Shown in pieces: positions 8,010 through 50,217 of a DNA stretch of 64,000 nucleotides. The DNA lies in NCBI GenBank assembly GCA_035620695.1, contig DASPGI010000126.1, positions 509 through 64,508 on the forward strand. Direction: 5' to 3'. The stretch comes from Alphaproteobacteria bacterium. GTDB taxonomy: Bacteria; Pseudomonadota; Alphaproteobacteria; JAREAF01. The notes beneath the pieces were generated by a model. It did no database searches, was not told the DNA's origin, and saw only the letters and a program-made list of their open reading frames with translations. Made by a program: the position numbers and the translations under genes. Numbering within the stretch: the first letter of the stretch is position 1; the number at the start of each line of letters is the position of its first letter.

Positions 8010-8097
8010 ATCTGCTGGCACCCCGATCTGTTTCCGCTCTGCCAAATCTCAGTGGTGGTTTCCGGTTCGCGTGTTGTGCTGGAAATCTACTCGCTGC

Positions 8098-9371: not shown

Positions 9372-9404
9372 GAAGCGCAGGAACTGGTTATCGAAATTTG
9401 GAAA

Positions 9405-11040: not shown

Positions 11041-11222
11041 GGCGCTCTTGCCCCGCCGAAACGTTGACTCTCATCACCGACTATAGTCTTATTGGAATAT
11101 TACTTCTTTTACTCGAAGCGGTAGGACAGAATCAAACCGAACAGCTTGCTTCGAGCGCCAGGCGTTTTCTCGTTCCGGTAACGCGATCAGCCCCAGGGAG
11201 TTCTGCTCGGCAGAATATCGGC

Positions 11223-12782: not shown

Positions 12783-12916
12783 CGCTCGGCAGCGGCGAGA
12801 GGGGTAGGGAACAGCCAGAGCGCTCCGGGCGGGGGCGCCTCAGGGTACGCGAGGACGGCGCGTCCGATCGCGCCGTATCGGCGTGTGATTACTCCACCAT
12901 ATGGGATCATAGCGGC

Positions 12917-14769: not shown

Positions 14770-16577
14770 ACATGCCCGTCGTGAAGATAGCCGGTTTGCG
14801 CATCGGCCTTGCCGGCTCGGCCTTCGATATCGTCGACGAAATCGATTTCCAGATCGGACAGGCCGAGATCGTGGGGCTCGTAGGCGAATCGGGCTCCGGC
14901 AAGACGACGGTCGGCCTCGCCCTGTTGGGATTTTGCCGACGCGGCGGAACGATCGAGGCCGGCCACATCACCATCGCCGGACGCAGCCTGCTCGAGCTGG
15001 GAACGGCTGCGCTGAATGCCGCACGCGGCCAAACCGTGGCCTACATCCCGCAGGATCCCTCGGCCGCACTTAATCCGGCTCTTCGGATCGGCCTGCAGCT
15101 CGAGGAGATGCTCGCGGTTCACCAGCCCGGTCTCGACGACGCCGAGCGCCGCAAGCGCGTGCTCGAGATGCTCGAGGAAGTCAAGCTGCCGACGCAAGAG
15201 CCCTTCCTGAAGCGCTACAAGCATCAGCTATCCGGCGGCCAGCAGCAACGGGTGGCGCTGGCCATGGCGTTTGCCTGTCGGCCGACGGTCATCGTGCTCG
15301 ACGAGCCGACAACCGGTCTTGACGTGACCACCCAGGCCCATGTGCTCGAAACCGTTCGAACCTTGTGCCGCCACTACGGCGTGGCTGCACTGTATGTAAG
15401 CCACGATCTCGCCGTCGTGGCGTCGCTGGCCGACCGGGTGCTGGTGATGTATGCGGGCCGCATCGTGGAGTCGGGCCCGGCCGCCGTGCTTTTTCGCAAT
15501 CCAGCCCACCCCTATACGCGAAGGCTGATCGCCGCGATTCCCGATCTGCACAGGAGACGCAATCTTGTCGGCATCCCGGGCCATGCGCCCTCGCCTGCGC
15601 AGCGCCCCTTGGGCTGCACTTTCGCGCCGCGCTGCGACTATGCGACCGGCGAGTGTCGCGCCCAATTTCCATCGGTTGAGATCATAGCGGCGCACCACTC
15701 CGTACGCTGCTGGCATCACGCGCGCGTTCAGGCCCGTGGCGATGCGCTTTCGGGGAGCGTGGGGGGCGCCGCAAGCCGGGCGTCGGCTGACCCAACCTCT
15801 CCGTTGCTTGCCGTCCGCGATCTTTCTGCCTGGTACGGTCGCCAGCCGGTACTTCACAAAGTGAGCCTGACGCTGGAAGCCGGTGAGTGCATGGCAGTGG
15901 CCGGTGAATCCGGAAGCGGCAAGACCACGTTGGCGCAATGCGTCGCCGGATTGCATCCGACTTTCTCGGGAGAGGTGATGCTCGCGGGCAAGGTGCTGGA
16001 GCCTCAGGCCCGGCGACGGCCGCGTTCGGTGCGCCGGGCGATTCAGTATGTGTTCCAAAGCCCTTATGCTTCGCTCAATCCGCGTCGCACCGTCGGCCAG
16101 ATCGTCGCGCGTCCTCTATACGTGTTCTTCGACGTCGGACACCGGCAAGCGCGGGAACGCGTGGCCGCCCATCTTGAGCGGGTGGCGTTGAGCCCGGCCT
16201 TGATCGACCGGTACCCGGATCAGTTGAGCGGTGGCGAGCGCCAGCGTGTCGCGCTTGCGCGCGCGCTCGCGGCCGACCCGCAGGTCCTTGTGTGCGATGA
16301 GGTGACATCGGCGCTGGACGTTTCTGTGCAGGCTGCCCTTGTCGAGTTGCTGGCGGAACTGCAGCGCAGCATGAATCTGGGCTTGTTGTTCATCACCCAC
16401 AATCTCGCATTGATCCGCACCATCGCCGACCGGGTTGCGGTCATGAGCGGTGGGCGCATCGTCGAAAGCGCTGAGGTTGAATCGGTTTTCGGCTCACCGA
16501 AGGCGGACTATACGCGAGAGCTTCTGGCCAACAGCCCCAGCCTGGATTCGCATGCCCCGATCAGCCAATCTGTATGA
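14766..16577 (+). CDS. Fused double-ATPase ABC subunit (DppD/F-like)
   Basis: Two Walker A motifs (GESGSGKT), two LSGG signatures, DEPT/DEVT Walker B. Confidence 0.93.
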   Translation: MNMPVVKIAGLRIGLAGSAFDIVDEIDFQIGQAEIVGLVGESGSGKTTVGLALLGFCRRGGTIEAGHITIAGRSLLELGTAALNAARGQTVAYIPQDPSAALNPALRIGLQLEEMLAVHQPGLDDAERRKRVLEMLEEVKLPTQEPFLKRYKHQLSGGQQQRVALAMAFACRPTVIVLDEPTTGLDVTTQAHVLETVRTLCRHYGVAALYVSHDLAVVASLADRVLVMYAGRIVESGPAAVLFRNPAHPYTRRLIAAIPDLHRRRNLVGIPGHAPSPAQRPLGCTFAPRCDYATGECRAQFPSVEIIAAHHSVRCWHHARVQARGDALSGSVGGAASRASADPTSPLLAVRDLSAWYGRQPVLHKVSLTLEAGECMAVAGESGSGKTTLAQCVAGLHPTFSGEVMLAGKVLEPQARRRPRSVRRAIQYVFQSPYASLNPRRTVGQIVARPLYVFFDVGHRQARERVAAHLERVALSPALIDRYPDQLSGGERQRVALARALAADPQVLVCDEVTSALDVSVQAALVELLAELQRSMNLGLLFITHNLALIRTIADRVAVMSGGRIVESAEVESVFGSPKADYTRELLANSPSLDSHAPISQSV

Positions 16578-16604
16578 CACCGACGGCACAGCGCTCTGCG
16601 GACA

Positions 16605-17591
16605 ATGACCATGGAACGATACAACATGCTCCAGGACGAAGGTATCCGCCGATTCGTGCTGGAGTCGGAATCATTGCGTCCCGCATACGCTGCCGGCGCC
16701 GCGATCGCCGAGCAGCGGATTTTCTACGACCGGCTATGCAGGCATTTTCGACGGCCGCGGCCGATTGGAATAGAGGTTCAAGACCTCTTCGTGAATGGTC
16801 CTGATGCAAGTGTATCGATTCGGCTCTACCGTCCAATGACCATAGGTTCGCTGCCCGCTCTGCTCTATTTGCATGGCGGCGGCTATATGCTGGGCGGTCT
16901 GGACAGCCATGACGATATTTGCGCCGAGATCGCCGACCGGGCCGGCGTTGCCGTCATCGCCATTGCCTACCGGCTTGCGCCGGAAGACCTGTTCCCGGCC
17001 GCCTTTGAAGACTGCCGGGCGGTACGCGATTGGGTCGCTTGCAGCGGTGCGGAACACGGCATCCGTTCCGACACCATCGCCATCGCAGGCGACAGCGCCG
17101 GAGGCGGTTTGGCGGCGGCTTTGGCGCTCGATGCCCGGGATAGAGGGGCGCCGCGGATCTCGGGGCAAATCTTGGTCTATCCCGACCTTGGCGGTGATAC
17201 GAGCAAGGGCTCTTATGTGGAACATGCCCAGGCGCCCGGCCTCACCACTGACGATGTCCGCTGTTATCGCTCAGCCTATCTCGGATCTTCCGTGGACCCC
17301 GCGCTGGGGAGCAAGTTCGCTCATCCCTTGAGGGAAAGCAGCTTTGACGGCGTTGCTCCGGCCTTTCTGGTCGCGGCCGAATGGGACCCCTTGCGCGACG
17401 ATTGCTTCGAATATGCCGGGCGTCTGCAAGCTTGCGGGGTTCCCGTCACCGTGCGACACGAGCCGCTGCTCGTGCATGCATTCTTGCGCGCGCGCCACAT
17501 GAGCAAACCCGCCGCCGAAAGCTTCACCGCCATTGCGGCAGCGGTTCGGTCTCTTGCCTACAAGAAGGAGCTGCCGTTGCAGGCCGCTTAG
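16605..17591 (+). CDS. Hormone-sensitive-lipase family esterase (alpha/beta hydrolase_3)
   Basis: HGGG oxyanion motif, GDSAGG nucleophile, DPLRDD, HAF. Confidence 0.9.
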   Translation: MTMERYNMLQDEGIRRFVLESESLRPAYAAGAAIAEQRIFYDRLCRHFRRPRPIGIEVQDLFVNGPDASVSIRLYRPMTIGSLPALLYLHGGGYMLGGLDSHDDICAEIADRAGVAVIAIAYRLAPEDLFPAAFEDCRAVRDWVACSGAEHGIRSDTIAIAGDSAGGGLAAALALDARDRGAPRISGQILVYPDLGGDTSKGSYVEHAQAPGLTTDDVRCYRSAYLGSSVDPALGSKFAHPLRESSFDGVAPAFLVAAEWDPLRDDCFEYAGRLQACGVPVTVRHEPLLVHAFLRARHMSKPAAESFTAIAAAVRSLAYKKELPLQAA

Positions 17592-22966: not shown

Positions 22967-23102
22967 GGGGCGATTGGCTCCAAACCAGATGCGAATTTCA
23001 TGGGGAGCATAGCAGTGAGACGCCGGGCGTGATTTAGATCAAAGCGCCACCGTGCCATCTGCTGGCGTCATGGCGCGGGGAAGGAATTCGACGGAGGAAA
23101 CG

Positions 23103-23528
23103 ATGGAGACGTTCACGCCCATATCGGCGCTGGTCGGCGGCATCATCATCGGCGGATCGGCAATCCTGCTCATGGTGCTCCTCGGCCGTATCGCCGGCAT
23201 CAGCGGCATCGTCGGCGGGCTCTTGCCCCCACCGGCTGGAGAAGCCGGCTGGCGCCTCGCCTTCCTCTTCGGGCTGGTCGCCGGGCCGGTGCTCTGGGGA
23301 TTGGTCGGAGGGTTCGTGCCGCCGGTCGAGGTGACGAGCGCAATCCCGGTGCTCATCGCCGGCGGGCTTCTGGTCGGGTTTGGCACCAGCCTCGGCAGCG
23401 GCTGCACCAGCGGTCACGGCGTCTGCGGCTTGGCGCGGCTCTCGCCGCGCTCTCTCGTAGCCACGCTGACCTTCATGGCGGTCGCGGTGGCGACCGTCTT
23501 CGTGACCCGCCATGTCATCGGAGGCTGA
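23103..23528 (+). CDS. YeeE/YedE family sulfur transporter subunit 1
   Basis: GRIAGISG and GSGCTSGHGVCG motifs. Confidence 0.9.
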   Translation: METFTPISALVGGIIIGGSAILLMVLLGRIAGISGIVGGLLPPPAGEAGWRLAFLFGLVAGPVLWGLVGGFVPPVEVTSAIPVLIAGGLLVGFGTSLGSGCTSGHGVCGLARLSPRSLVATLTFMAVAVATVFVTRHVIGG

Positions 23529-23532
23529 GACG

Positions 23533-23970
23533 ATGAACCGCATCCTCGCCGCCTTCGTCGCCGGCCTCGTCTTCGGGGTCGGCCTCACCGTCGCGCAGAT
23601 GACCAATCCAGCGAAGGTGCTGGCCTTCCTCGACCTCTTTGGCAACTGGGATCCCAGCCTCGCCTTCGTCATGGGCGGAGCAGTCGCGGTCACCTTCGTC
23701 GGTTACCGCTCCCTTCGCGGCCGGCATGCCCCGGTCTGTGACATGTCGATGCGCTGGCCGACGACGACCGCCATTGATGGCCGGCTGGTCGGTGGGGCGG
23801 CCCTTTTCGGTCTTGGTTGGGGCCTGGTCGGGCTATGCCCCGGGCCCGCGGTCGCTTCGCTCGGCATCGCACCTCAGCGCACGATACTGTTCGTGATCGC
23901 CATGCTGGTAGGGATGGCGCTGGCTCGGTGGTTCGGAGAGCGCCGGTCGCCCGCTGCTGCGTCGGCATAA
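23533..23970 (+). CDS. YeeE/YedE family sulfur transporter subunit 2
   Basis: KVLAFLD...WDPSL and GWGLVGLCPGP motifs. Confidence 0.9.
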   Translation: MNRILAAFVAGLVFGVGLTVAQMTNPAKVLAFLDLFGNWDPSLAFVMGGAVAVTFVGYRSLRGRHAPVCDMSMRWPTTTAIDGRLVGGAALFGLGWGLVGLCPGPAVASLGIAPQRTILFVIAMLVGMALARWFGERRSPAAASA

Positions 23971-24064: not shown

Positions 24065-26491
24065 ATGGCCGCGGAGATTCCCTCAACGGCGCGCGTAGTG
24101 ATCGTCGGCGGCGGTGCCGTCGGCTGCAGCGCGCTCTATCACCTGGCGAAGCTCGGCTGGACCGATTGCGTGCTCCTGGAGAAGAACGAGCTCACCTCCG
24201 GCTCGACCTGGCATGCCGCCGGCAACTGTCCGAACTTCTCGACCAACTGGGGCATCATGAAGCTGCAGAACTATTCGACGCGGCTCTATGCCCGGCTCGG
24301 CGACGAAGTCGGCTATCCGATGGGTTACCACGTCACCGGCTCGATCCGGCTCGCCCATCATCGCAGCCGCATGGAGGAGTTCCACCACGTCACCGGCATG
24401 GCGCGCTATCAAGGCATCGAGTTTGCGATGCTGAGCCTGCGGGACATCAAGGAGCGCTATCCCTTCATCGAACTACACGATCTCGAGGGCGGCCTCTGGG
24501 ATGCGACAGACGGCGATGTCGACCCGGCGCAGCTCACCCAGGCGCTGGCCAAGGGCGCCCGTGACCTCGGCGCGCGCGTGATCCGCTTCTGCCCGGTCAT
24601 AGGTATCCGGCGTGAGAAGGGAGAATGGATCGTCTCGACGCCGCAAGGAGATATCCGTGCCGAGATCGTCGTCAACGCCGCCGGTTATCGCGCGCCCGAA
24701 GTCGGTGCCATGGTCGGCCGCGAGGTTCCTTCCGTCGCCATGTCGCACCAGTATCTGGTCACCGAGCAGATTTCGGAGTTGGCGGAGCGGAAAGAGAAGC
24801 TTCCGCTCCTACGCGACCCCGATGTCAGCTACTACCTGCGCCAGGAACGCCAGGGCCTTTTGCTCGGCCCTTATGAATGGGACTGCAAGGCGATGTGGCT
24901 CGACGGCGTCCCTGAGGATTTCTCCTTCCAGCTCTGGGCTGACGATCTCTCGCGCCTCGAGCGCTATATCGAGGATGCCTGCCGGCGCGTGCCGATCCTG
25001 GGCTCGGTCGGCATCACCCGCGTCATCAACGGACCCATCCCCTATACGCCTGACGGCAATCCCCTGATCGGCCCCGCGCCGGGCCTCGCGAATTTCTACG
25101 AAGCGTGCGTCTTCTCCTTCGGCATCGTGCAGGCCGGCGGCGCCGGCAAGGCGTTGGCCGAGTGGATCGTCGAGGGCGAGCCGGAATGGGATCTGTGGTC
25201 GCTCGATCCGCGCCGCTACACCGGCTATGTGACCAAGTCCTATGTCGCGGCGCAGGCGATCGAGCTTTACCAGAACGAATACGCGATCGGCTTTCCGACG
25301 CTGGAGCGCCAGGCCGGCCGTCCGGCCAAGACCTCGACCGTCTATGGTCTGCTCAAATCCAAGGGCGCGGTCATGGCGGCGCGCGGAGGCTGGGAACGCG
25401 CGGTATGGTTCCCGCGCCCGGGCGATGATCCGAAGGCGCCCGCGACTTTCCACCACGGCGCTTGGTTCGAGGCGGTCGGCGAGGAGTGCCGCGCGGTCCG
25501 GGACGCCGCAGGACTGCTCGATCTTCCCGGGATCTCGCGCTTCGAGGTGAGCGGGAAAGATGCCGCCGCCTGGCTCGACGGCTTGATCCTAACCCGGCTG
25601 CCGCGCGCGGGGCGCTGCGGCCTCGGCTATTTCCTCTCGCCGAAGGGCGGTGTGCTGGCGGAAGCATCAATCGCCGCGCTTGGGTCGGATCGCTATTGGG
25701 TGATGTCGGGCGCCACCGCCGAGTGGCATGACCGGGACTGGCTTACCGCGCGCCTGCCGAAGGAGGGCGGCGTGGCGCTCACAAATGTGACGCCTCATTA
25801 CGACACGCTCGTGTTGGCAGGACCGAAGTCGCGCGACATCCTCGCCCGAGTCACCGACGCCGATCTTTCCACCCCTGCCTTCCCCTGGATGACGTTGCGC
25901 GAACTCACGATCGGCTCGGCGCCGGTCACGGCGATGCGCATGACCGAAACCGGCGAGCTCGGCTACGAGTTGCATCCGCCGATCGAATATGCCGCCGCCG
26001 TCTATGAGGCGCTGATGGAGGCGGGCGTCGATCTGGGCCTCAAGGATTTCGGGCTCTACGCGCTCGATTCCTTGCGTCTGGAGAAGGGCTACCGCGCCTG
26101 GAAATCCGACCTGATGCTGGACCAGCCAGTGACGGCGGTCGGCATGGACCGCCTTTTGCGCCTCGACAAGCCGAATTTTGTCGGCCGCGAGGCGGTAACC
26201 TCCAACACCGGGCGCAATCCGAAGCTGGTCTCCGTTCTGCTGCTGGTCGATGCGGACAGCGCCGACGCGCTGCCTTTCGCAATCGTCCATGATGGCAAGA
26301 AACGGGTGGGGTTTGTCACCTCCGGCGGTTACGGCCACCGCATCGGCCGCTCGCTGGCGCTGGCCTTCGTCGAGCGCGCCGTTGCCAAGCCGGGGATACG
26401 TTTGCAGGTGGATATCTTCGGTGAGGCGCGCCCGGCCAGCATTGTCGATGGCGTACCTTACGATCCCGACAACAGCCGCATGAGGGTCTGA
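24065..26491 (+). CDS. GcvT-family FAD-dependent N-demethylase (dimethylglycine dehydrogenase-like)
   Basis: GGGAVG, TWHAAG covalent-FAD motif, YTPDGNP, THF-binding GELGYE and SLRLEKGY motifs. Confidence 0.9.
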   Translation: MAAEIPSTARVVIVGGGAVGCSALYHLAKLGWTDCVLLEKNELTSGSTWHAAGNCPNFSTNWGIMKLQNYSTRLYARLGDEVGYPMGYHVTGSIRLAHHRSRMEEFHHVTGMARYQGIEFAMLSLRDIKERYPFIELHDLEGGLWDATDGDVDPAQLTQALAKGARDLGARVIRFCPVIGIRREKGEWIVSTPQGDIRAEIVVNAAGYRAPEVGAMVGREVPSVAMSHQYLVTEQISELAERKEKLPLLRDPDVSYYLRQERQGLLLGPYEWDCKAMWLDGVPEDFSFQLWADDLSRLERYIEDACRRVPILGSVGITRVINGPIPYTPDGNPLIGPAPGLANFYEACVFSFGIVQAGGAGKALAEWIVEGEPEWDLWSLDPRRYTGYVTKSYVAAQAIELYQNEYAIGFPTLERQAGRPAKTSTVYGLLKSKGAVMAARGGWERAVWFPRPGDDPKAPATFHHGAWFEAVGEECRAVRDAAGLLDLPGISRFEVSGKDAAAWLDGLILTRLPRAGRCGLGYFLSPKGGVLAEASIAALGSDRYWVMSGATAEWHDRDWLTARLPKEGGVALTNVTPHYDTLVLAGPKSRDILARVTDADLSTPAFPWMTLRELTIGSAPVTAMRMTETGELGYELHPPIEYAAAVYEALMEAGVDLGLKDFGLYALDSLRLEKGYRAWKSDLMLDQPVTAVGMDRLLRLDKPNFVGREAVTSNTGRNPKLVSVLLLVDADSADALPFAIVHDGKKRVGFVTSGGYGHRIGRSLALAFVERAVAKPGIRLQVDIFGEARPASIVDGVPYDPDNSRMRV

Positions 26492-26495: not shown

Positions 26496-28958
26496 ATGGC
26501 CGAGATCACGCTGCCTAAGCACGCCCGTGCCGTCATCATCGGCGGTGGGGTGGTCGGCTGTTCCGTCGCCTACCACTTGGCCAAGCTCGGCTGGACCGAC
26601 ATCGTGCTCCTGGAGCGCAAGCAGCTCACTTGCGGCACCACCTGGCACGCCGCCGGTCTGATCGGCCAGCTCCGCGCCACGCAGAACCTGACCATGCTGG
26701 CGAAGTACTCGGCCGAGCTTTATGCCGGGCTGGAGGCGGAGACCGGCGTCGCCACCGGCTATCGCCAGGTTGGCTCCATCGGCGCGGCCTTGAGCCATGA
26801 GCGGCTGGAGGAATTCAAGCGCGGCGCCTCGATGGCGAAAACGTTCGGACTCGAGGTCGAGACGCTGGGGCCGGGCGAGATCAAGAGACGCTACCCGTTG
26901 CTCGAAACGAAAGACGTGGTCGGCGGCGTCTATCTCGCCAAGGACGGACAGGCCGACCCGGCCAACATCGCGCTGGCATTGGCCAAGGGCGCGCGCCAGA
27001 AGGGCGCCAGGATCTTCGAGGGCGTCAAGGTCACGGGCATTCTCACGGAGAAAGGTCGCGCGGTCGGCGTGGAGACCGCGCAAGGGCCGATCCGCGCCGA
27101 GCATGTCGTCAACTGCGCCGGCATGTGGGGGCGCGAGGTGGGGCGCATGGCGGGAGTCTCGGTGCCGCTCCAGGCGTGCGAGCATTTCTACATTGTCACC
27201 GAGCCCATCGCCGACCTGCCGCGCGGGCTTCCCGTGCTGCGCGTGCCGGACGAGCAGAGCTATTACAAGGAGGATGCCGGCAAGCTCCTCGTCGGATGCT
27301 TCGAGCTCGAGGCCAAGCCTTGGGCGCTCGAGGGCATACCGGAGGAGTTCTGCTTCGACCAGCTTCCCCCCGACATCGACCATTTCCAGCCGATCCTGGA
27401 GAAGGCGATGGGCCGGCTGCCGATCCTCGAAAAAGCCGGCATCCATACCTTCTTCAACGGGCCGGAGAGCTTTACTCCCGACGACAGATACCTTCTCGGC
27501 GAGGCGCCGGAGCTGAGGAATTTCTGGCTCGCCTGCGGCTTCAACTCGATCGGGATCCAGTCGGCGGGTGGAGCGGGAAAGGCGCTTGCGGAATGGATGC
27601 AAGCCGGCGAGCCGAGCATGGACCTGTGGGATGTCGACATCCGCCGCATGCAGCCCTTCCAAGGTAACCGTCGCTATCTGATCGCGCGGGCGCAGGAGGC
27701 CTTGGGCCTGCTCTATGCCGACCACTTCCCTTATCGTCAGGTGGTGACCGCGCGGGGCGTGCGCACCTCGCCCTTGCACGAGCGGCTGGCGGCGGCAGGC
27801 GCCTGCTTCGGCGAGGTCGCGGGCTGGGAACGCGCCAACTGGTTTGCACCGAAGGGCGTCGAGCCCGTCTACCGCTATAGCTGGAGGCGCCAGAACTGGT
27901 TCCACCACAGCGCAGCCGAGCATAAGGCGGTGCGCGAGGCGGTCGGGCTCTTCGACATGAGCTCCTTCGCCAAGTTCCGCGTCGAGGGCCGCGAAGCCGA
28001 GGCGGCGTTGCAACGCATTTGTGCAAACGATGTGGCGGTGGAGCCCGGCCGCATCGTCTACACGCAATGGCTGAACGAGCGCGGCGGGGTCGAGGCGGAT
28101 CTGACGGTGACGCGGCTTTCCGAAAGCGCCTATCTGGTGGTGACGGCCGCGGCTGGCGCCACGCGCGACCGCGCCTGGCTTGCGCGCCACATTCCGGAGG
28201 ATGCTCATTGCATTGTGACCGACGTCACCGCGGGCGAGGCGGTGATCGTGGTGATGGGACCGAATTCGCGGCTGCTGCTGCAGTCCTTGACCGACACCGA
28301 CCTCTCGAACGCAGCCTTCCCGTTTGGCACCGCCAGGGAGATCGAAATCGGGATGGGCCTCGCGCGCGCCCATCGCATCACCTATGTCGGCGAGCTAGGC
28401 TGGGAGCTGTACGTTCCCTCCGACATGGCGCGGCTTGTCTTCGATACCATCGTCGAGGCGGGGGCCGCGCATGGGCTCAAGCTCGCCGGCCTGCACGCGC
28501 TCAACTCGCTGCGCATCGAGAAGGCCTATCGGCATTTCGGGCACGACGTGACCGATGAGGATCATGTGCTCGAAGCGGGTCTGGGCTTCGCAGTGAAGCT
28601 CGACAAGCCGCGCGGGAAATTCGGCGACTTCATCGGGCGCGAGGCGGTCTTGCGCAAGAAGGAGCGGGGACTGAAAAGCCGGCTCCTGCAATTCAAGCTC
28701 ACCGAGCCTGAGCCGCTCCTTTATCACAACGAGCCGATATGGAGGGAGAAGCGCATTGTCGGCCAGGTGCGCTCCGGCGCCTACGGCCACACGCTGGGCG
28801 GCGCAATTGCGCTCGGCTACGTTGCGTGCGAGCCTGGCGAAACACCAGAGGACCTGGCCGGCCAGGCTTACGAGATGGAGATCGCCGGCGAGCGCTTCCC
28901 CGCGGTGGCCTCGGCACGGCCGATGTATGACCCGAAAGGGGAGAGAATCAGGGGGTAA
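26496..28958 (+). CDS. GcvT-family FAD-dependent N-demethylase (sarcosine dehydrogenase-like)
   Basis: GGGVVG, TWHAAG, ESFTPD, GELGWE and SLRIEKAY motifs. Confidence 0.9.
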   Translation: MAEITLPKHARAVIIGGGVVGCSVAYHLAKLGWTDIVLLERKQLTCGTTWHAAGLIGQLRATQNLTMLAKYSAELYAGLEAETGVATGYRQVGSIGAALSHERLEEFKRGASMAKTFGLEVETLGPGEIKRRYPLLETKDVVGGVYLAKDGQADPANIALALAKGARQKGARIFEGVKVTGILTEKGRAVGVETAQGPIRAEHVVNCAGMWGREVGRMAGVSVPLQACEHFYIVTEPIADLPRGLPVLRVPDEQSYYKEDAGKLLVGCFELEAKPWALEGIPEEFCFDQLPPDIDHFQPILEKAMGRLPILEKAGIHTFFNGPESFTPDDRYLLGEAPELRNFWLACGFNSIGIQSAGGAGKALAEWMQAGEPSMDLWDVDIRRMQPFQGNRRYLIARAQEALGLLYADHFPYRQVVTARGVRTSPLHERLAAAGACFGEVAGWERANWFAPKGVEPVYRYSWRRQNWFHHSAAEHKAVREAVGLFDMSSFAKFRVEGREAEAALQRICANDVAVEPGRIVYTQWLNERGGVEADLTVTRLSESAYLVVTAAAGATRDRAWLARHIPEDAHCIVTDVTAGEAVIVVMGPNSRLLLQSLTDTDLSNAAFPFGTAREIEIGMGLARAHRITYVGELGWELYVPSDMARLVFDTIVEAGAAHGLKLAGLHALNSLRIEKAYRHFGHDVTDEDHVLEAGLGFAVKLDKPRGKFGDFIGREAVLRKKERGLKSRLLQFKLTEPEPLLYHNEPIWREKRIVGQVRSGAYGHTLGGAIALGYVACEPGETPEDLAGQAYEMEIAGERFPAVASARPMYDPKGERIRG

Positions 28959-28960
28959 AC

Positions 28961-29022
28961 CCCCTCGCCCGCGCGAGCGGGAGAGGGGGGGACCCGTCGC
29001 GTCAGCGACGGGAGGGTGAGGG
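28961..29022. repeat. REP-like double-hairpin unit (orientation B)
   Basis: CCCCTCGCCC..GGGAGAGGG hairpin, second hairpin, then GGGTGAGGG; 5 bp from the DUF559 stop codon. Confidence 0.85.
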
Positions 29023-29027
29023 CCTGT

Positions 29028-29369
29028 TTACTTCCTCGATTGCTCGATCAAAGCGAGATGGATCGTCTCCAGAATGCCTTCCGTATTGGCGAGGACTTCT
29101 GGGTTCCAGAAGCGAAGAACACGATAGCCCCTGCCGGCGAGGTAGGTGTCCCGGCGCTTGTCATACTCGCTCCCATGCTGACCGCCATCCAGCTCGACCA
29201 CCAGCCTGGCTGCCCGGCAAGCGAAGTCCGCGATATAGGGGCCAATCGGAAGCTGCCGCACGAAACGCACGCCCAAGCCATGGTTGCGCAACTTCGACCA
29301 CAGGCGTCGTTCGGCCTCGGTTGGCTCTCGGCGCATCTGGCGAGCGCGGGTGATCAAGTCGCGAGGCAT
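29028..29369 (-). CDS. DUF559 (Vsr-like) endonuclease
   Basis: RARQMRREPTEAERRLW...RQ.PIGPYIADF.C...LVVELDGGQH...RD..L...GYRVLRFWN; alternative starts at 29393 and 29417. Confidence 0.9.
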   Translation of the reverse strand: MPRDLITRARQMRREPTEAERRLWSKLRNHGLGVRFVRQLPIGPYIADFACRAARLVVELDGGQHGSEYDKRRDTYLAGRGYRVLRFWNPEVLANTEGILETIHLALIEQSRK

Positions 29370-29410
29370 ACTCAAAAAAACGCAAACCACCATGCGTTGC
29401 AAGGGAACCG

Positions 29411-29533
29411 CCCTCACCCGGCTCGGGGCTCAACGCCCCTCGCCGACCTCTCCCGCGATGCGGGAGAGGTAATGGACCCCTCGCCCCGCGGATGCGGGGA
29501 GAGGGTGCCGAGCGCAAGCGAGGCGGGTGAGGG
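29411..29533. repeat. Inverted pair of REP-like units (A 29411-29469, B 29477-29533)
   Basis: CCCTCACCC...GACCTCTCCC..GGGAGAGG followed by its approximate reverse complement. Confidence 0.88.
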
Positions 29534-29536
29534 AAG

Positions 29537-30352
29537 TTACACCGCCACGGTCCGCCCGAGTGCGCGGATATGCACCTCGCGGTTGAACATCATCCCGGGC
29601 TTGCGGTCATAGCTGAAAAGCGCGATGAGGCGCGGGCGAGTGCCTTCGACTTCGGTCACGTGATGGAGCGAGCGGCGGCCGCGGAAGAGGGCGAGGCAGC
29701 CGGGCGTGATCGCGCCGGTGCGCTTCAGGCCCGGCTCGTCGTCCAGCATGCGGGCCACGCCTTGGTAATTCTCGTCGTCCTCCGAGCGGATGTTGGGCGC
29801 GTATTCGAACGCGCCGCCACGCTCGGCCGCTTGCAGGAGCAGACTTACCACGAAGTCGTTCTGGTCATAGTGCCAGGCATGCGTGTCGCCGGGCTGGAGC
29901 ACGGTAATGACACATGAGGCGAGCGGGTCGGCGCAGGTGTAAAGCTCTGCCTCTCCCGTCACCGCGGCGATGAAGCGCGTCAGCGCCGGACATTCATAAA
30001 GTGCCCGCGTGACCGAGTCGGCCGGCAGCAAATCGTAGGCAATCGCGCCCATCGAGGAACGGAACCGCCGCCGGCGCGCATGGCCCTCCGGGAGATCGGC
30101 ATCGCCCTTGTTGTTCTCGTAGGAATAGATGCTGTACCACTCGTCCCGGCGAAACGCGCGCGGGACAAGCGCCTCGGCCTCCGCCGCCATCGCCGCCAAG
30201 GCTTCGGAGGCGATGAAACCCGGGAACAGCGCAAGCCCGTCTCTCGCCAGCGCCGCGCGCCCTTCGGCGATCACCGCCTGCGCCTGTGACGATTCGAGGT
30301 CGTCGATCGGATAGCGCTTCAGATCGACCGCTGCGTAGCGGCTCGGGTTCAT
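29537..30352 (-). CDS. Fe(II)/2-oxoglutarate-dependent dioxygenase, BesD/HalD-like fold with HxD triad
   Basis: THAWHYD, GGAFEY, LFRGRRSLHHVT and R.IALFSY motifs; ATG 30352 overlaps the upstream stop. Confidence 0.75.
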   Translation of the reverse strand: MNPSRYAAVDLKRYPIDDLESSQAQAVIAEGRAALARDGLALFPGFIASEALAAMAAEAEALVPRAFRRDEWYSIYSYENNKGDADLPEGHARRRRFRSSMGAIAYDLLPADSVTRALYECPALTRFIAAVTGEAELYTCADPLASCVITVLQPGDTHAWHYDQNDFVVSLLLQAAERGGAFEYAPNIRSEDDENYQGVARMLDDEPGLKRTGAITPGCLALFRGRRSLHHVTEVEGTRPRLIALFSYDRKPGMMFNREVHIRALGRTVAV

Positions 30353-31308
30353 CTCTGCCTGCTCCGGCGGTCGCGGTCCGCTTTCAACCACCGGATCAAC
30401 TCTGCTCGCCGCACGGCCAGCAGCGCCTCGCCGTCGCGCTTCGTCCAGTCATAGATACCGCCGCCTTGCCCGATGCTCTTGCGTCCCTGCCGCACCAGCT
30501 CGCCGATGACGCCGGGCGGCTCGGGCGCCACGTCGAGCGTGGGCTGTAGGAACCGCGCGAAATTGTACATGGTCTCGAGCCCGCCGAGATCGGCCGATTC
30601 GATCGGCCCGGTGACGCCGAGCCGGCGGCCGATCGAGTTGCGGACCACGGCGTCGATGGCCTCGGCCGAGGCGACGCCCGAGGCCCAGAGAGCCCAGGCC
30701 TCGCGAAGCGCCGCGAACTGGATACGGTTGCCGATGAAGCCCGGCACCTCGCGGTCGATCACCACCGGCTCCTTGCCGGCCTCGCGTAGGACCTCACAAG
30801 TCCAGGTCACCACCTCGGGAGCCGTCGCAGGTCCGCCGCAGACTTCGACCAAAGGCAGAAGCTGCGGCGGATACCAGAAATGCGCGGCGATGACGCGCTC
30901 GGGGCGTCCGACCCTCTCTACCAGCTCGCTCGCCGGATGGCCGCTGGACGAAGCCAGCACGGCCGGCGGCGGGCAAATGGAATCGAGCCGCCCGAAGATC
31001 CCGCGCTTGAGCTCCATATTCTCCGGCACCGCCTCGACCACAAGCTGAGCGTCGCGGGCGTCCTCAAGCCTGGTTGAGATTTCCACCCGCGCCAGCGCCG
31101 CCTCGGCGTCGCTTTCCGCAATCAGTCCGTTCTCCCTGAAAAGAGCGAGACCCTCGGAGATCAGCGCCTTCGCGCGCTTCAAGCTGTCAGCGCTGCGGCC
31201 GATCAAACGCACCCGTTTACCGGACATGGCGAAGACCTGCGCCACGCCATGGCCGATGATGCCATTTCCGATCACGGCAACCGTATTGAGAGAGCGGGGG
31301 ACGGCCAT
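30349..31308 (-). CDS. 3-hydroxyacyl-CoA dehydrogenase family protein
   Basis: GNGIIGHG Rossmann motif, EAVPEN..LK, HFWYPP..LPLVE and PGFIGNRIQ motifs. Confidence 0.9.
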   Translation of the reverse strand: MAVPRSLNTVAVIGNGIIGHGVAQVFAMSGKRVRLIGRSADSLKRAKALISEGLALFRENGLIAESDAEAALARVEISTRLEDARDAQLVVEAVPENMELKRGIFGRLDSICPPPAVLASSSGHPASELVERVGRPERVIAAHFWYPPQLLPLVEVCGGPATAPEVVTWTCEVLREAGKEPVVIDREVPGFIGNRIQFAALREAWALWASGVASAEAIDAVVRNSIGRRLGVTGPIESADLGGLETMYNFARFLQPTLDVAPEPPGVIGELVRQGRKSIGQGGGIYDWTKRDGEALLAVRRAELIRWLKADRDRRSRQR

Positions 31309-31389
31309 GGGAACGTTCCTGAATAAGAGGGCGAGGAGTCTGGCGGGTCGCGCGCATGCTAGAATGCCGCAGCGAACGGGGGCATAGGA

Positions 31390-32178
31390 ATGGCCGCAAA
31401 GGGAGAATCGGCTGCGACGCTGCAAGAGCGGGCCTATCGCTGGGTGGAGCCGAGGGCCTGGCCCAAGGGCCTGTCGCCGTTCAACCGGGTGGTCCTGGTC
31501 CTGATTGTGGTGGCCAGCGCCTTGGCCGTGATCGAGACCGAGGACACCGTTGTCGCGCCCGCTCCGAAGCTTTTCGTCGGGTTGGACCTCGCCTTCGGCG
31601 TCATCTTCCTGATCGAGCTGGCCCTGCGTTTCTGGGTGGCGGGTGTCGATCCGCGCTGGGCTGGGCTTTCCGGACGGCTGCGCTGGCTCTTGCGGCCGAT
31701 TTCAATCATCGACCTGATTGCGATCTTGCCCTCCTTCCTTCTCCTCGGCGGCACCGATACCTTCATGCTGCGCTTGATCCGGCTGGCGCGCATTTTGCGG
31801 ATCGCCCGGCTCGGCCAGTTCAGCGAAGCGAGCCTGATGCTCTATGAGGCGATTCGTTCGCGCCGCTACGAGTTGACGGTCAGCTTGCTCGCGGCGGGCA
31901 TCGTCCTGATGGTCTCTGCAACCCTGCTCTACCTGATCGAGGGCGAGGTCCAGCCGCAGGCCTATGGCAGCATCCCGCGCGCGCTGTGGTGGAGCATCGT
32001 CACGCTGACCACGGTCGGATACGGCGACGTTTATCCGGTCACTCTGCTCGGGCGGATCTGTGGCGCGTTCACCGCGCTGGCTGGGATTGGGCTGATCGCG
32101 ATGCCGACCGGTATCCTGGCCGCCGCCTTCAGCGACGTCTTCCAGAAGCGCCGGACCCAGAAGCACGGCGGCGAGTGA
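31390..32178 (+). CDS. Voltage-gated potassium channel-like ion transporter (6TM)
   Basis: S4 RLIRLARILRIARL and selectivity filter TTVGYGD. Confidence 0.92.
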   Translation: MAAKGESAATLQERAYRWVEPRAWPKGLSPFNRVVLVLIVVASALAVIETEDTVVAPAPKLFVGLDLAFGVIFLIELALRFWVAGVDPRWAGLSGRLRWLLRPISIIDLIAILPSFLLLGGTDTFMLRLIRLARILRIARLGQFSEASLMLYEAIRSRRYELTVSLLAAGIVLMVSATLLYLIEGEVQPQAYGSIPRALWWSIVTLTTVGYGDVYPVTLLGRICGAFTALAGIGLIAMPTGILAAAFSDVFQKRRTQKHGGE

Positions 32179-32182: not shown

Positions 32183-33379
32183 TCAGCCAGCGGAATTCCA
32201 CCGCTCCCCCGCTTCAGGCAACGGATATTTGAGGCCGCTGGCGCAGTTGAACAGCATCACGCGTTCGTCTCGCGAGACCCGGTTCTCCGCGAGTGCTTGT
32301 TTCCAAGCGGCGTAAGTGGCGGCGCCTTCGGGTGACAGCAATAGGCCCTCGGCTTTCGCCACCTCGGCGCGTGCGGCGAGGATGGCCTGGTCGGTCACGG
32401 CGATCGCGAAGCCTCCGCTTTCGCGAACCGCCCTCAGGATCAGAAAATCGCCAATCGCGGCCGGCACGCGGATGCCGGCGGCGACGGTCGCAGCATTCCG
32501 CCAGAGCGCAGCATGTTCAACACCATCATCGAACGCCTTGACGATCGGCGCGCAGCCCGCCGCCTGCACGGCGATCATCCGGGGGCGGTGCGTGTCGATC
32601 CAGCCGAGGCGGCCAAGTTCCGCGAAAGCCTTCCACATGCCGATAAGGCCGGTGCCGCCGCCGGTCGGATAGAAGATCGCATCGGGCAGCTTCCAATCGA
32701 GTTGGTCGGCGAGCTCCAGCCCCATCGTCTTCTTCCCCTCGATGCGATAGGGCTCCTTGAGCGTCGACATGTCGAACCAGCCCATCCGCTCCGTGCCCTC
32801 GGCGACCAGGCGGCCGCAGTCGTTGATGAGGCCATTGACCCGCCACACCGTGGCGCCTTGTGCGGCGATCTCGCGGATGTTCACCTCGGGCGTGTCCTCG
32901 GGACAGAAGACGAAGCACTCTATTCCTGCCCGCGCGGCATAAGCGGCAAGCGCGGCCCCCGCATTGCCGTTGGTCGGGATCGCCACGCGCCGGAGTCCGA
33001 ATCCCTGGGCCATGGTTACCGCCATTGCTAGCCCGCGCGCCTTGAAGGAGCCGGTCGGCAGCCTTCCTTCGTCCTTCACCGTAAGCGCGCGCGCGCCCGC
33101 ATCGGCGGCGAGCCTCGTCAGCGGGATCAGCGGCGTCTGCACCTCGCCTAGCGAGACAATCGCGTCCGGATCGGAGACGGGAAGCAGCGGGAGATAGCGC
33201 CACATCCCCGGTGGATGCTGTCGCAGGCGGTCGCGATCGATCGCGCGACCCAGCGCCTCGAGGTCATAGCGCACGAGCAAAGGTTTCCCCGCGCGCGACA
33301 GGTTGTAGGGTCGGCCGGCTTCATACCGTTCACCAGTGGCCGAGCATTCGAGATGGGAGAGGAATGATGGGTGGTGCAT
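32183..33379 (-). CDS. Threonine synthase-like PLP enzyme (short type)
   Basis: PTGSFKARG PLP lysine, TNGNAG, EGKKTMG, PTGGGTG and SPEGAA motifs. Confidence 0.85.
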   Translation of the reverse strand: MHHPSFLSHLECSATGERYEAGRPYNLSRAGKPLLVRYDLEALGRAIDRDRLRQHPPGMWRYLPLLPVSDPDAIVSLGEVQTPLIPLTRLAADAGARALTVKDEGRLPTGSFKARGLAMAVTMAQGFGLRRVAIPTNGNAGAALAAYAARAGIECFVFCPEDTPEVNIREIAAQGATVWRVNGLINDCGRLVAEGTERMGWFDMSTLKEPYRIEGKKTMGLELADQLDWKLPDAIFYPTGGGTGLIGMWKAFAELGRLGWIDTHRPRMIAVQAAGCAPIVKAFDDGVEHAALWRNAATVAAGIRVPAAIGDFLILRAVRESGGFAIAVTDQAILAARAEVAKAEGLLLSPEGAATYAAWKQALAENRVSRDERVMLFNCASGLKYPLPEAGERWNSAG

Positions 33380-33606: not shown

Positions 33607-34830
33607 TCACTCCTCCGCAAGTTCGCGCAGCACTTCGGCCAGCACCTCAGCGCCGGCGGCGAGGTGCTCCGGCTCGACGGCTTCGGCCTCGTTGTGGCTG
33701 ACCCCGCCGCGGCAGGGAATGAAGATCATCGCCGTCGGGCACAAGCCCGCCATGAACTTGGCGTCGTGGGTGGCGCCGGAGAGGATGTCCTTTGGTTCGA
33801 GTCCCAACCGCCGCGTCGCGCGGCGCACGCGCTCGACCATGGCGGGAGCGAAAACCACCGGGCTTGAATCCAGGATTTGCCGGACCTCGGCCGTGCAGGG
33901 CGAAGCCTCGCTGCGGCAGATCTCGGCAATGCCATGGGTGATGCGATCGAGCAAGACGGCATCGGGATGGCGCAGGTCGATCGTGAACTCGACACGGGCC
34001 GGCACGGTATTGGGCGAGCCCGGCGCCAGCATGAATCTGCCGATGGTGAAGCGGGTGATCTCGGAGGGATCCGCGACCAGCTTGTAAAGCGCGCCGACAA
34101 TGCGGTGAGTGGTCGCGAAGGCATCCTTGCGGCGCGAGGCGGGAGTGGTGCCCGCATGCGCCTCCTCGCCCTCGACGGTGATCGCGAACTGGCGCAGACC
34201 TTGAATTCCGGTGACGGCGCCGATAACGCGGCCCTCCGCCTCCAGCACCGGGCCTTGCTCGATATGCGCCTCTACATAGGCGAAGGCGGCGCGGCCAAGC
34301 GGCCTTGGACCCGCCCCGGACAGAGCCGCGCGCTGCACCGCCAACGCCGCGCCGAAGGTGGCGCCGCTCGCATCGGTTGCGTTCAATGCATCCTCAAGCG
34401 TTATTGCGCCCGCATGCACGGCCGAGCCCATGGTCGCAGGTTGGAAGCGTGCGCCCTCCTCATCGGCCCAGACCACGAGCTCGATCGGCCGCCGCGTGGC
34501 GATGTCCTTCTCGATGAACCCCTCCAACACCTCCAGCCCGGCCAGCACGCCGTAGATTCCATCGTACTTGCCGCCAGTCGGCTGGGTGTCGAGATGCGAG
34601 CCGGTCCAGAGGGGTAAGAGATCTGGCTCGCGCCCCTCGCGTCGCAGGAACAGATTGCCGACCGGATCGAGCGTGGCCGCCAAGCCCAGTCGCTCGCTCC
34701 AGTTGATGAGGAGGGCCCGCGCCGCCGTATCCTCGGGCGAGAGCGCCAAGCGGCACACGCCGCCGCGGCCGGTCGCTCCGATCTGGGCCATCTTTTCGTG
34801 CCTGTGCCAGAGCCGGTCCGCGCTCACCAT
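33607..34830 (-). CDS. M20 family Zn-dependent amidohydrolase (N-carbamoylase/allantoate amidohydrolase-like)
   Basis: GSHLDTQP.GG.YDG, DEEG.RF, EAHIEQG, HAGT and SGATHDA motifs. Confidence 0.9.
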   Translation of the reverse strand: MVSADRLWHRHEKMAQIGATGRGGVCRLALSPEDTAARALLINWSERLGLAATLDPVGNLFLRREGREPDLLPLWTGSHLDTQPTGGKYDGIYGVLAGLEVLEGFIEKDIATRRPIELVVWADEEGARFQPATMGSAVHAGAITLEDALNATDASGATFGAALAVQRAALSGAGPRPLGRAAFAYVEAHIEQGPVLEAEGRVIGAVTGIQGLRQFAITVEGEEAHAGTTPASRRKDAFATTHRIVGALYKLVADPSEITRFTIGRFMLAPGSPNTVPARVEFTIDLRHPDAVLLDRITHGIAEICRSEASPCTAEVRQILDSSPVVFAPAMVERVRRATRRLGLEPKDILSGATHDAKFMAGLCPTAMIFIPCRGGVSHNEAEAVEPEHLAAGAEVLAEVLRELAEE

Positions 34831-43976: not shown

Positions 43977-44801
43977 TCAGGCGATCGGTTCCGAAAGCAG
44001 GATCTCGCCCCTACCGTCAACGGCAAGATCGCCGGAGGCGCGACGCATCGGCCGTCCGGTGATGAGGGGCGCCAGCCAAGGGGCCGCATGGCGGAGGCGA
44101 CAAGCCAAGAGGCTGAGGATAGTCAGCTCGGTTTGGCCGGTTTGGACAAAAGTATCCGGTATGCCCTGCACAGCCCGCGAAGCGAGGATCGTGCCGCGCC
44201 GCATGCGCAATCCGGGTGAGGCGCCGAGCCCTCCGCCAACCGCCACGGTGCCGGCGACCATCCGTGCGCCACAGCAATCGCCCGCATCGCCGGTGATCAG
44301 GATCGTGCCCCGGCGCATGCGCTCGCCAGCACGAGGACCCGCACCGCCACGAACGATGACGAGGCCGCCGCGCATGCCGAGCCGCGCGCCGGGCGGCGGC
44401 CCACCAAGAAAGGATCCCGCGCCTCCCTCGATGGTCAGCATGCCCCCTCGCATGCCTGCTGCAGCATGGTCGCCGACCGATCCTGTGATGTGGATGCTGC
44501 CGCCCGACTGGCTTGCGCCGGTTCCATACCCGGCATCGGCGTCGACACGGATCTCGCCCTGTACAAGTCCACGTCCGATCCCGTCCAGTCGTTCGCAAGC
44601 TCCAGCCAGGACCAGAAGCGGCCCTGGTCCTCCTTCCACCCGGAAGAGATCCGCCAGGGCGACCGTGCGCCGGCCAAGCCACAGCGGAATTCGCTCAAGC
44701 TTGGCCGCAGAGGCATGGGCGAGCGTTTCCGGGCTGAGGCAGCCCACCTCGACCGGCAGAGGCGGCCGATTGCGCAAGGTCAATTTCCAACCTTCCATCA
44801 C
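43977..44801 (-). CDS. fhcC: Formyltransferase/hydrolase complex subunit C (FwdC-like)
   Basis: Gly-rich GXGXG beta-helix repeats (GMRGG, RMRRG); cluster context. Confidence 0.93.
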   Translation of the reverse strand: MMEGWKLTLRNRPPLPVEVGCLSPETLAHASAAKLERIPLWLGRRTVALADLFRVEGGPGPLLVLAGACERLDGIGRGLVQGEIRVDADAGYGTGASQSGGSIHITGSVGDHAAAGMRGGMLTIEGGAGSFLGGPPPGARLGMRGGLVIVRGGAGPRAGERMRRGTILITGDAGDCCGARMVAGTVAVGGGLGASPGLRMRRGTILASRAVQGIPDTFVQTGQTELTILSLLACRLRHAAPWLAPLITGRPMRRASGDLAVDGRGEILLSEPIA

Positions 44802-45694
44802 GAGGCGATCTCTCGCAATCGGAACTGGAATGGGCCGAGCTTGCCGCCGTAGTTACCCGCACCTATCCGGCGTACGCCTCCCGCGGCCCCGACCTCGCAT
44901 AGCGCCAGGATGCCGGCACGCATGGCGGCTGCAACGTCTTCCTCGGTCAAGCCGTCGATGACGATCTCCAGTACGGATTCGATTCCCGGTTCGAGCCGGC
45001 TTGCTACGACGCCCTTCAGGCTCGGGCAATAGGCGTCGTTGGTCGAGGCGGGGAGCCCCTTATAGCGTGCGCCGACCTTCGATCCCGATCGCACGATGCC
45101 GCCGGGAAAGGGCAGGATGACATTGGGCAGCCTGCGGATTGCGGCGACCGCGTGTTCGCTCGCGGCGAGCACTTCCGCCCGGCTCTCGCCGAGGATGAGG
45201 AGATTGCCTCCTCCTACGGCGCGTACCATGCCGACGCTGTCCTCCACCAGAAACTCGCCATCCATGACCGGCACCCGCCAGTAACGGCGGCCGAGAATCT
45301 GCTTGGAGGCCTGAAACCCGTCTCCAAAGAAGCGTAAACTCCGCCCGAGTGGAATCGTGTCTGGCGTATCGAGGCCGGAATAGCAGGCCGAACCGGCGGT
45401 GGTCAGGACGCTTTGGCCTACGCGCGCCAGCACCTGCTTGGCGAGCTCGGCCGAGTTGACTGCGAAAATCAGCACCGACACGCCTGGCCGTCCGTCCGGT
45501 GTCTCTGCCGGCGCAACCAGGCGCTCGATGCCAGCCTCGCAGCCGCAGCCGATCACCGAGGTGGCGAAGCCGGTGAGACTTTCCGCGGCCCTCGTGGCCC
45601 ACGCGGCACTATCGGCGGTGATTACAAGCCGGGTGGCCCGCATGCCGAACGCCTCGGCGAAGGTATCCTCGATGACGACGCCGTTGACGATCAT
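44798..45694 (-). CDS. fhcD: Formylmethanofuran:H4MPT formyltransferase (Fhc subunit D)
   Basis: DTFAEAF, GFATSVIGCGCEAG, TPDGRPG, RSGSK and GNYGGKLG motifs. Confidence 0.96.
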   Translation of the reverse strand: MIVNGVVIEDTFAEAFGMRATRLVITADSAAWATRAAESLTGFATSVIGCGCEAGIERLVAPAETPDGRPGVSVLIFAVNSAELAKQVLARVGQSVLTTAGSACYSGLDTPDTIPLGRSLRFFGDGFQASKQILGRRYWRVPVMDGEFLVEDSVGMVRAVGGGNLLILGESRAEVLAASEHAVAAIRRLPNVILPFPGGIVRSGSKVGARYKGLPASTNDAYCPSLKGVVASRLEPGIESVLEIVIDGLTEEDVAAAMRAGILALCEVGAAGGVRRIGAGNYGGKLGPFQFRLREIAS

Positions 45695-48641: not shown

Positions 48642-48680
48642 GGCGCCGCCGGCCTGGTCCGAAATCGGTCACTCTCCGGC

Positions 48681-49055: not shown

Positions 49056-49179
49056 GCCGGCGCTCCTTTCTCGTCAAATATGGCCGTGGCGCGGGGTCGC
49101 GGACCCTGTGCTAAGGTTTTCAGCAAGGCCTCGGGGCCACGCCGAACGAGCATAAGAGTAGATTTCGAGCGCGGGCAAT

Positions 49180-50202: not shown

Positions 50203-50217
50203 CTCACGGAGGAGCTC

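Follow-up and report, generated by a model that had tools for sequence, protein, structure and literature searches.

The locus studied here lies in a 64,000-nucleotide stretch of DNA (hereafter the window) from contig DASPGI010000126.1 of the alphaproteobacterial assembly GCA_035620695.1 (GTDB lineage JAREAF01) and consists of two adjacent genes on the minus strand. The first gene of the pair (30349-31308) encodes a 3HCDH-family, NAD-dependent dehydrogenase of 319 amino acids in length, and the second (29537-30352) encodes a Fe(II)/2-oxoglutarate (2OG) dioxygenase of 271 amino acids, predicted to belong to the hydroxylase type of the BesD/HalD family; both were recognised from their open reading frames (ORFs) and Pfam matches. 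The TGA stop codon of the dehydrogenase gene (30351-30349) overlaps the ATG start codon of the dioxygenase gene (30352-30350) in an ATGA tetranucleotide (30349-30352, minus strand), suggestive of translational coupling. This overlap had been claimed in an earlier description of the DNA made from its letters (hereafter the original prediction) and was confirmed by direct reading of the sequence. Both genes are preceded by credible Shine-Dalgarno sequences, AGGA located 8 nt 5' of the dehydrogenase ATG and GGAG located 9 nt 5' of the dioxygenase ATG, and the N-termini of orthologs favour the ATG at 30352 over a GTG at 30391 as the start of the dioxygenase. A scan of positions 28800-31600 for sigma-70-like promoters found none, a result that is uninformative in such a GC-rich organism.

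The dioxygenase, encoded by the single HalD-family gene of the genome, scores 66.5 bits (cut-off 26, E 2.9e-18) against the Pfam HalD family (PF23169) over residues 28-249, and its only other Pfam match at E<=0.01 is a sub-threshold one to PhyH. When the PDB was searched by sequence and by profile, the only matches (E 5e-13 to 1e-4) were HalB, HalD, BesD, HalA and the BesD-like lysine hydroxylase. The AlphaFold model of the protein has a predicted local distance difference test score (pLDDT) of 92, and the top 40 Foldseek hits of this model are again HalB, HalD, BesD, HalA and the lysine hydroxylase, known as Hydrox (E down to 9e-16). Template-modelling (TM) scores against the solved BesD-family structures range from 0.62 to 0.73 at 17-24% identity, and on the BesD equivalog model NF042920 the protein reaches 24 bits compared to a cut-off of 450. 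The dioxygenase is thus a remote yet genuine representative of the BesD/HalD family and of its hydroxylase type.

In an alignment of the dioxygenase with 18 relatives (44-85% identity) residues H161, D163, H230, R241 and W160 are invariant, and the first four of these fall on ligand columns of HalB and BesD. The protein carries the motif GDTHAWHYD; when this is aligned over GDTHGWHWGD, D163 takes the Gly position of the halogenases, and the HxD matches the HxG of HalB, BesD and HalD column for column. H-[YF]-D stands in place of HxG throughout the subfamily. Because the HxD gives a complete His-Asp-His triad, the enzyme is predicted to act as a hydroxylase, and the halogenase reading was rejected on the same ground. 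Pfam, the PDB sequence search and the fold search thus support the original prediction of a BesD-like dioxygenase with an HxD in its THAWHYD motif. A comparison with gamma-butyrobetaine and trimethyllysine hydroxylases had also been proposed there; these TauD-family, BBOX-type enzymes were ruled out, since the dioxygenase has no TauD-family match in Pfam.

Residues that might contact the substrate were sought among those described for the halogenases. Arg83 of HalB binds the substrate carboxylate (PMC10041140), and the His of GDTH, H137 in BesD numbering, is a carboxylate contact (PMC13244439). The nearly invariant R94 of the dioxygenase aligns with HalB R83, its H158 corresponds to the His of GDTH, D249, an invariant residue of its C-terminal lid, matches the DRR (lid Asp) of HalD, and the counterpart of BesD D143 is the variable position 164, all in loop alignments of low confidence. 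The alignments of R94, H158 and D249, weak as they are in these loops, are consistent with a substrate that would present a carboxylate and a cationic nitrogen.

The dehydrogenase matches both Pfam domains of its family, 3HCDH_N (PF02737; 182.9 bits, E 7e-54) and 3HCDH (PF00725; 58.1 bits, E 1e-15), which bears out the hydroxyacyl-CoA-type dehydrogenase of the original prediction. Its Rossmann GxGxxG motif and residues S121/S122, H143, E155 and N194 do not vary among 10 orthologs, and we take the Ser, the His-Glu couple and the Asn to have the catalytic roles generally ascribed to them in human HAD. The protein passes no NCBIfam equivalog cut-off: the best model is PRK06129 (224.6 bits vs 347), followed by PRK08269 (200.3 vs 427), with 5-formyl-3-hydroxy-2-methylpyridine-4-carboxylate (FHMPC) dehydrogenase also among the best, and it remains below the cut-offs of the equivalogs named 3-hydroxybutyryl-CoA dehydrogenase. 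L-carnitine dehydrogenase was ruled out by NF005716 (128.8 vs 592 bits) and NF005471 (117.6 vs 414 bits). The nearest solved relatives, all with similar scores, are 3-hydroxybutyryl-CoA dehydrogenases, FHMPC dehydrogenase, PaaH and lambda-crystallin. Judged from these matches, membership of the 3HCDH family alone would not discriminate a CoA ester from a free acid as the substrate.

Close orthologs of the dioxygenase (69-85% identity) come from metagenomic contigs and one congeneric metagenome-assembled genome (MAG) only. The dehydrogenase gene lies directly upstream of the dioxygenase gene in all ten of the close-ortholog contigs that show the upstream side (L001, L086, L087, L088, L089, L120, L121, L122, L123 and one further close-relative contig). 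The 4-bp overlap is also present in L001, L086 and L087, and a gap of ~97 bp is found in L088 and in the further close-relative contig. The outer flanks vary; L001 encodes an ABC transporter of the peptide type and a PhyH dioxygenase upstream, while a ThrC-like gene lies upstream of the pair in L086, L087 and the further close-relative contig. At a greater distance, the neighbour genes of the window were searched by tblastn against 80 GTDB species-representative loci with relatives of 37-50% identity. An adjacent dehydrogenase was found in 0/80 of these loci and a neighbour resembling dimethylglycine dehydrogenase (DMGDH) in one, which rules out a linkage conserved family-wide. Relatives of 52-61% identity (L107-L109) carry an M20 amidohydrolase gene (TIGR01891) immediately upstream in place of the dehydrogenase gene; an M20 protein as the shared ancestral partner was rejected, as the M20 protein of the window is of the carbamoylase type. 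The pair is therefore a lineage-specific operon, real and conserved within its own lineage, and the gene-neighbourhood comparison suggested by the original prediction upholds the linkage to the dehydrogenase at this close range.

We propose, with a probability of about 0.5, that the pair is a bicistronic module, coupled in translation, which hydroxylates and then dehydrogenates an amino-acid-like zwitterion. The dioxygenase would hydroxylate an unactivated carbon of a small compound with a carboxylate and a cationic nitrogen, namely an amino acid in its free form or one of its near derivatives. The dehydrogenase would then use NAD+ to turn the secondary alcohol so formed into a ketone, the carbon passing from C-H through C-OH to C=O. 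Elsewhere, this oxo compound could undergo cyclisation, transamination or C-C cleavage. The proposal is supported by the gene order and tight spacing, which are kept in 10/10 contigs despite their differing outer flanks. A literature search for gene clusters with a 2OG hydroxylase and a 3HCDH protein found nothing relevant. A catabolic or salvage role appears more likely than a biosynthetic one.

Several observations weigh against this proposal. The pairing does not extend beyond one narrow lineage, and the count of ten out of ten is not independent because the contigs come from related organisms. The residue-level alignment to the carboxylate-binding loop of BesD and HalB is of low confidence. 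The dehydrogenase subfamily, moreover, is highly conserved (57-72% identity across alphaproteobacterial families) and its orthologs occur in other settings. An AmaA/PuuB-like FAD amine oxidase gene follows the ortholog in L090, L091, L147, L154, L155 and L157; genes for CoA-ligase, enoyl-CoA hydratase and acyl-CoA dehydrogenase sometimes surround it; and in the remaining genomes it stands alone as a monocistronic gene or beside unrelated genes. The substrate of the dehydrogenase may accordingly be a common metabolite or CoA ester and not the product of the hydroxylase. Among the individual contexts, L058 has the ortholog divergent from a PF03171 oxygenase gene, a RACo/methyltransferase pair adjoins it in L146, and in L090 and L091 the amine oxidase gene lies 4-16 bp past the dehydrogenase stop (pairs at L090:9001-11280 and L091:9001-11253). 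The pair of dehydrogenase ortholog and FAD amine oxidase, seen in several alphaproteobacterial lineages, is itself conserved and apparently undescribed.

Because the contexts of the orthologs vary at 57-72% identity, a rival explanation can be framed in which the dehydrogenase has a fixed substrate and an interchangeable oxidase partner. The two genes would then be co-transcribed for steps that are not consecutive: the dehydrogenase would act on a pre-existing 3-hydroxy acid or 3-hydroxyacyl-CoA, and the dioxygenase might, for example, hydroxylate next to a nitrogen to give a carbonyl and an amine, as an O2-dependent stand-in for the FAD amine oxidase. The DAO-family oxidase of the six loci listed above does occupy the position of the dioxygenase, the conservation of the dehydrogenase across contexts suggests an unchanged substrate, and CoA-metabolism genes lie near it in L090 and L091. 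However, characterised BesD-family hydroxylases act on unactivated side-chain methylenes of amino acids (PMC10041140, PMC11973848), neither the window nor L086-L088 has CoA-metabolism genes alongside the pair, and many of the dehydrogenase orthologs have no oxidase partner. We consider this explanation unlikely.

The wider subfamily to which the hydroxylase belongs, recognised by its HxD, comprises at least 482 loci among species-representative genomes, from several hundred species. It is proteobacterial and actinobacterial, carries the motif WH[YF]DxNDF and is separate from the solved BesD-family members. Neighbour genes in this wider family were called with an ORF caller weighted by GC content at third codon positions (GC3), given the high-GC DNA, and were counted over the 67 loci with a called ortholog. 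A divergently oriented LysR regulator gene is the commonest neighbour (23/67 loci), and a gene for an M24 creatinase-fold hydrolase recurs downstream in 14 loci, often together with the divergent LysR gene (e.g. L051:2175-3458). SBP_bac_5 binding proteins are encoded in 8 loci; M20, CN_hydrolase and MFS transporter genes are also seen, and a TonB receptor gene is a neighbour in gammaproteobacterial MAGs. Such regulators, amide hydrolases and transporters point to the use of small nitrogen compounds or amide conjugates. In protein-atlas clusters the HxD subfamily bears the automatic name 'HalD/BesD family halogenase', and systematic mis-annotation is probable, since with the Asp ligand conserved these proteins are unlikely to act as halogenases.

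The pair converges on two tandem genes of the plus strand, at 24065-26491 (808 amino acids) and 26496-28958 (820 amino acids), whose products each match DAO, FAO_M, GCV_T and GCV_T_C and resemble DMGDH or sarcosine dehydrogenase (SarDH) fused to a GcvT folate domain. The two share ~39% identity, as estimated by cross-matches to their L088 orthologs, and from the fusion of DAO and GcvT domains both are predicted to be DMGDH/SarDH-type N-demethylases. Two small co-directional genes for YeeE/YedE-type membrane proteins (Sulf_transp, DUF6691; 23052-23970, plus strand) lie directly 5' of them, an unusual combination. The gap between the 820-aa gene and the dioxygenase gene is 578 bp (28959-29536) and holds a small endonuclease-like DUF559 gene of 129 amino acids on the minus strand (29028-29417; Pfam E 8.7e-37) and, 3' of the dioxygenase stop, a perfect hairpin with an 11-bp stem (29446-29470), possibly a terminator or an element of the repetitive extragenic palindromic (REP) type. 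The original prediction had the pair facing the demethylase genes; the convergence stands, but the two units are not immediate neighbours, as the DUF559 gene in between had been missed.

Linkage to the demethylase genes was counted over 8 informative close-relative contigs (76-85% identity). In five of them (L088, L120, L121, L122 and the further close-relative contig) an ortholog of the 820-aa gene (80-91% identity) converges on the dioxygenase gene. The gap measures 0.2 kb in L120 and 0.13 kb in L122, where the junction has no insert, and 1.35 kb in L121; it is 2.3 kb in L088 (L088:2735-4920), holding DUF5343, a defence-like HEPN_Swt1 gene and a hypothetical gene, and 3.1 kb in the further close-relative contig, where it contains a histidine kinase gene plus two hypothetical ones. 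The convergent junction is an insertion hot spot, often of mobile or defence genes. The adjacency is lost in L086, where a Crp regulator and a DEAD helicase are encoded downstream, and in L001 and L006. The same relatives retain QOR and EamA genes past the demethylases and, on the opposite flank, RTX, M20 and ThrC-like genes; as the lineage keeps the genes on both flanks, the adjacency is best read as block synteny. Their opposite orientation implies that the demethylase genes are not co-transcribed with the pair and form separate transcription units. The adjacency thus looks like lineage synteny, with functional coupling possible on the basis of local gene order. The link to the demethylases drawn in the original prediction, with genes that are convergent, separated by DUF559, neighbours in 5/8 close relatives and represented by a DMGDH-like gene in 1/80 distant loci (L043), was not borne out.

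On that link rests another explanation, in which the pair would start the catabolism of an N-methylated amino acid or betaine, in the manner of gamma-butyrobetaine to carnitine to 3-dehydrocarnitine, and the DMGDH/SarDH-like enzymes would pass methyl groups to tetrahydrofolate (THF) or formaldehyde to tetrahydromethanopterin (H4MPT). The convergent adjacency to the GcvT-fused genes in the five contigs named above fits such a route. So does a cluster for H4MPT-linked formaldehyde oxidation at 44798-55265 (Ftr, an FhcA-like amidohydrolase, Mch, ATP-grasp and CitG-like), whose Ftr, Mch and FhcA-like genes, at 44.8-53.4 kb, show that the H4MPT module of the original prediction is present in the window. 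In the wider family, the HalD-subfamily gene of L043 (a Hyphomicrobiaceae MAG, 4166-16774) stands among two DMGDH-like genes and genes for a GMC oxidoreductase, DUF2200, an Ldh_2 dehydrogenase, a methyltransferase and a cupin resembling lyases of dimethylsulfoniopropionate (DMSP), a region with the look of a catabolic island for osmolytes or onium compounds. In marine members, the M24 neighbours come nearest to the DMSP lyase DddP, at 310 bits and below its cut-off of 600. Together, these DddP-like neighbours and L043 give weak hints of onium- or betaine-type substrates in the wider family.

Much of the local evidence runs the other way. The demethylases lie on the opposite strand behind the DUF559 gene, the inserts of the junction differ among relatives (DUF5343/HEPN, histidine kinase or none), and the pair is kept in L086 and L001, where the demethylase adjacency is gone. 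The unrelated flank of RTX, M20 and ThrC-like genes is kept too, as expected from block synteny, and the single DMGDH-like gene among the 80 distant loci likewise speaks against a general association. The dehydrogenase fails the carnitine dehydrogenase models and the dioxygenase is without a TauD-family match. A 3HCDH-family gene directly beside a gene for a beta-keto acid cleavage enzyme (BKACE, DUF849) was observed on contig C97 (6736-8189). The combination of 3HCDH and BKACE is the classical arrangement for beta-keto-acid cleavage in carnitine-type catabolism, so that the genome already has one. A BKACE partner adjoining the pair was looked for and rejected; the four BKACE matches of the genome, 3 of them full-length, lie elsewhere, one of them on C97. 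A betaine route through the pair therefore seems improbable to us. Its extension to the whole HxD subfamily, as hydroxylases of zwitterionic osmolytes or betaines on the BesD fold which here, with the 3HCDH dehydrogenase and two GcvT-fused dehydrogenases, would form an undescribed betaine or N-methyl-amino-acid route feeding C1 units to THF and H4MPT, is quite improbable.

On the other side of the pair, a gene for a voltage-gated-type ion channel (Pfam Ion_trans; 31390-32178, plus strand) is divergent from the dehydrogenase gene. It is followed by a gene for a threonine-synthase-like, pyridoxal phosphate (PLP)-dependent enzyme (32183-33379, minus strand; NF006050, 627 bits), syntenic in L086, L087 and the further close-relative contig, and by one for an M20 amidase of the hydantoinase/carbamoylase family (33607-34830, minus strand; TIGR01879, 378 bits vs a cut-off of 204), syntenic in L087 and the further close-relative contig. 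The channel gene, wedged between the ThrC-like and dehydrogenase genes in the window and in L086 (95% identical), is a variable insert: it is absent from L087, and a VasI gene takes its place in the further close-relative contig. The better thrC match of the genome lies on contig C149, and the ThrC-like neighbour is for this reason considered an accessory paralog of the housekeeping gene.

These genes could be seen as a small biosynthetic cluster in which the ThrC-like enzyme and the M20 amidase, with a methyltransferase in L087, would contribute to the formation of a non-proteinogenic amino acid with an oxo or hydroxy group, comparable to the conversion of lysine to 5-oxolysine for DON (6-diazo-5-oxo-L-norleucine) or of isoleucine through 4-hydroxyisoleucine to 2-amino-3-methyl-4-ketopentanoate (AMKP). 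The M20, ThrC-like, dehydrogenase and dioxygenase genes are indeed co-directional in L087, the further close-relative contig and the window, the ThrC-like gene is an extra paralog, and the AzpK2/AzpJ enzymes discussed below set a precedent (PMC11973848). A single operon is nevertheless argued against by the varying interval between the ThrC-like and dehydrogenase genes (ion channel, VasI or none). The pair also occurs without the ThrC-like and M20 genes in L001 and L088, no gene resembling a nonribosomal peptide synthetase (NRPS), ligase, exporter or diazotase was seen, and the context of the wider family looks catabolic. Such a biosynthetic cluster is very unlikely.

The hydroxylate-then-dehydrogenate module that we favour looks ordinary and its enzymology would be as expected; its main value lies in giving practical access to a subfamily that is unstudied and is mislabelled as halogenase in databases. 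BesD-family enzymes are prized biocatalysts for the site-selective C-H functionalisation of free amino acids, and their known substrates are few, namely lysine, ornithine and a handful of others. Since the partner dehydrogenase is conserved, an NADH-coupled assay is readily available for finding the substrate, an approach already taken with AzpJ. If the substrate should be a betaine or methylated amino acid, the pair would provide a new way into the C1 metabolism of soil Alphaproteobacteria.

Among known systems, the dioxygenase shares its Pfam family and fold with BesD, HalA, HalB, HalD and the BesD-like lysine 4-hydroxylase Hydrox (PDB 6NIE, 7U6H-J, 9OER-W, 7JSD), as well as the GDTHxWH motif, the distal His, the 2OG-binding Arg and a candidate Arg and His for carboxylate binding. 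It differs from the halogenases of this set in having HxD and not HxG; its score on the BesD model is low (24 bits vs a cut-off of 450), and the TM scores against the set reach only 0.62-0.73. The proposed order of reactions is familiar from carnitine metabolism, where gamma-butyrobetaine hydroxylase and L-carnitine dehydrogenase, a 2OG hydroxylase followed by a 3HCDH-family dehydrogenase, yield a 3-keto acid. Unlike in that system, the dioxygenase of the window is not a TauD protein, its dehydrogenase is far below the carnitine cut-offs and no BKACE gene adjoins. In Bacillus thuringiensis, L-isoleucine dioxygenase (IDO) and 4-hydroxyisoleucine (HIL) dehydrogenase are encoded together and produce a keto amino acid; the logic is again hydroxylation and then dehydrogenation, but IDO is a BsmA-type dioxygenase and HIL dehydrogenase a short-chain dehydrogenase/reductase (SDR).

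The closest published case is that of AzpK2 and AzpJ from DON/alazopeptin-type clusters, which follow the same logic of a hydroxylase and then an NAD+-dependent dehydrogenase as proposed here. AzpK2-type alpha-ketoglutarate dioxygenases, related to BesD and HalB, convert lysine to (5S)- or (5R)-5-hydroxylysine (PMC11973848), and AzpJ-type stereospecific NAD+ dehydrogenases convert 5-hydroxylysine to 5-oxolysine (PMC11973848, Kawai et al. 2025). The likeness is one of reaction logic; the protein family of AzpJ is not stated in that paper (PMC11973848). Near the pair, inspected without reference sequences of AzpJ or AzpL, neither a gene for the diazotase AzpL nor any other azp-like gene could be discerned, and among 400 sampled genomes of Actinomycetes, which contain 5 canonical members of the family (HxG and HxD), none has a 3HCDH gene within 1.5 kb of these. 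While AzpK2 belongs to a context of secondary metabolism, the dioxygenase of the window is a member of a separate subfamily (WH[YF]DxNDF) and is found in a context that looks catabolic.

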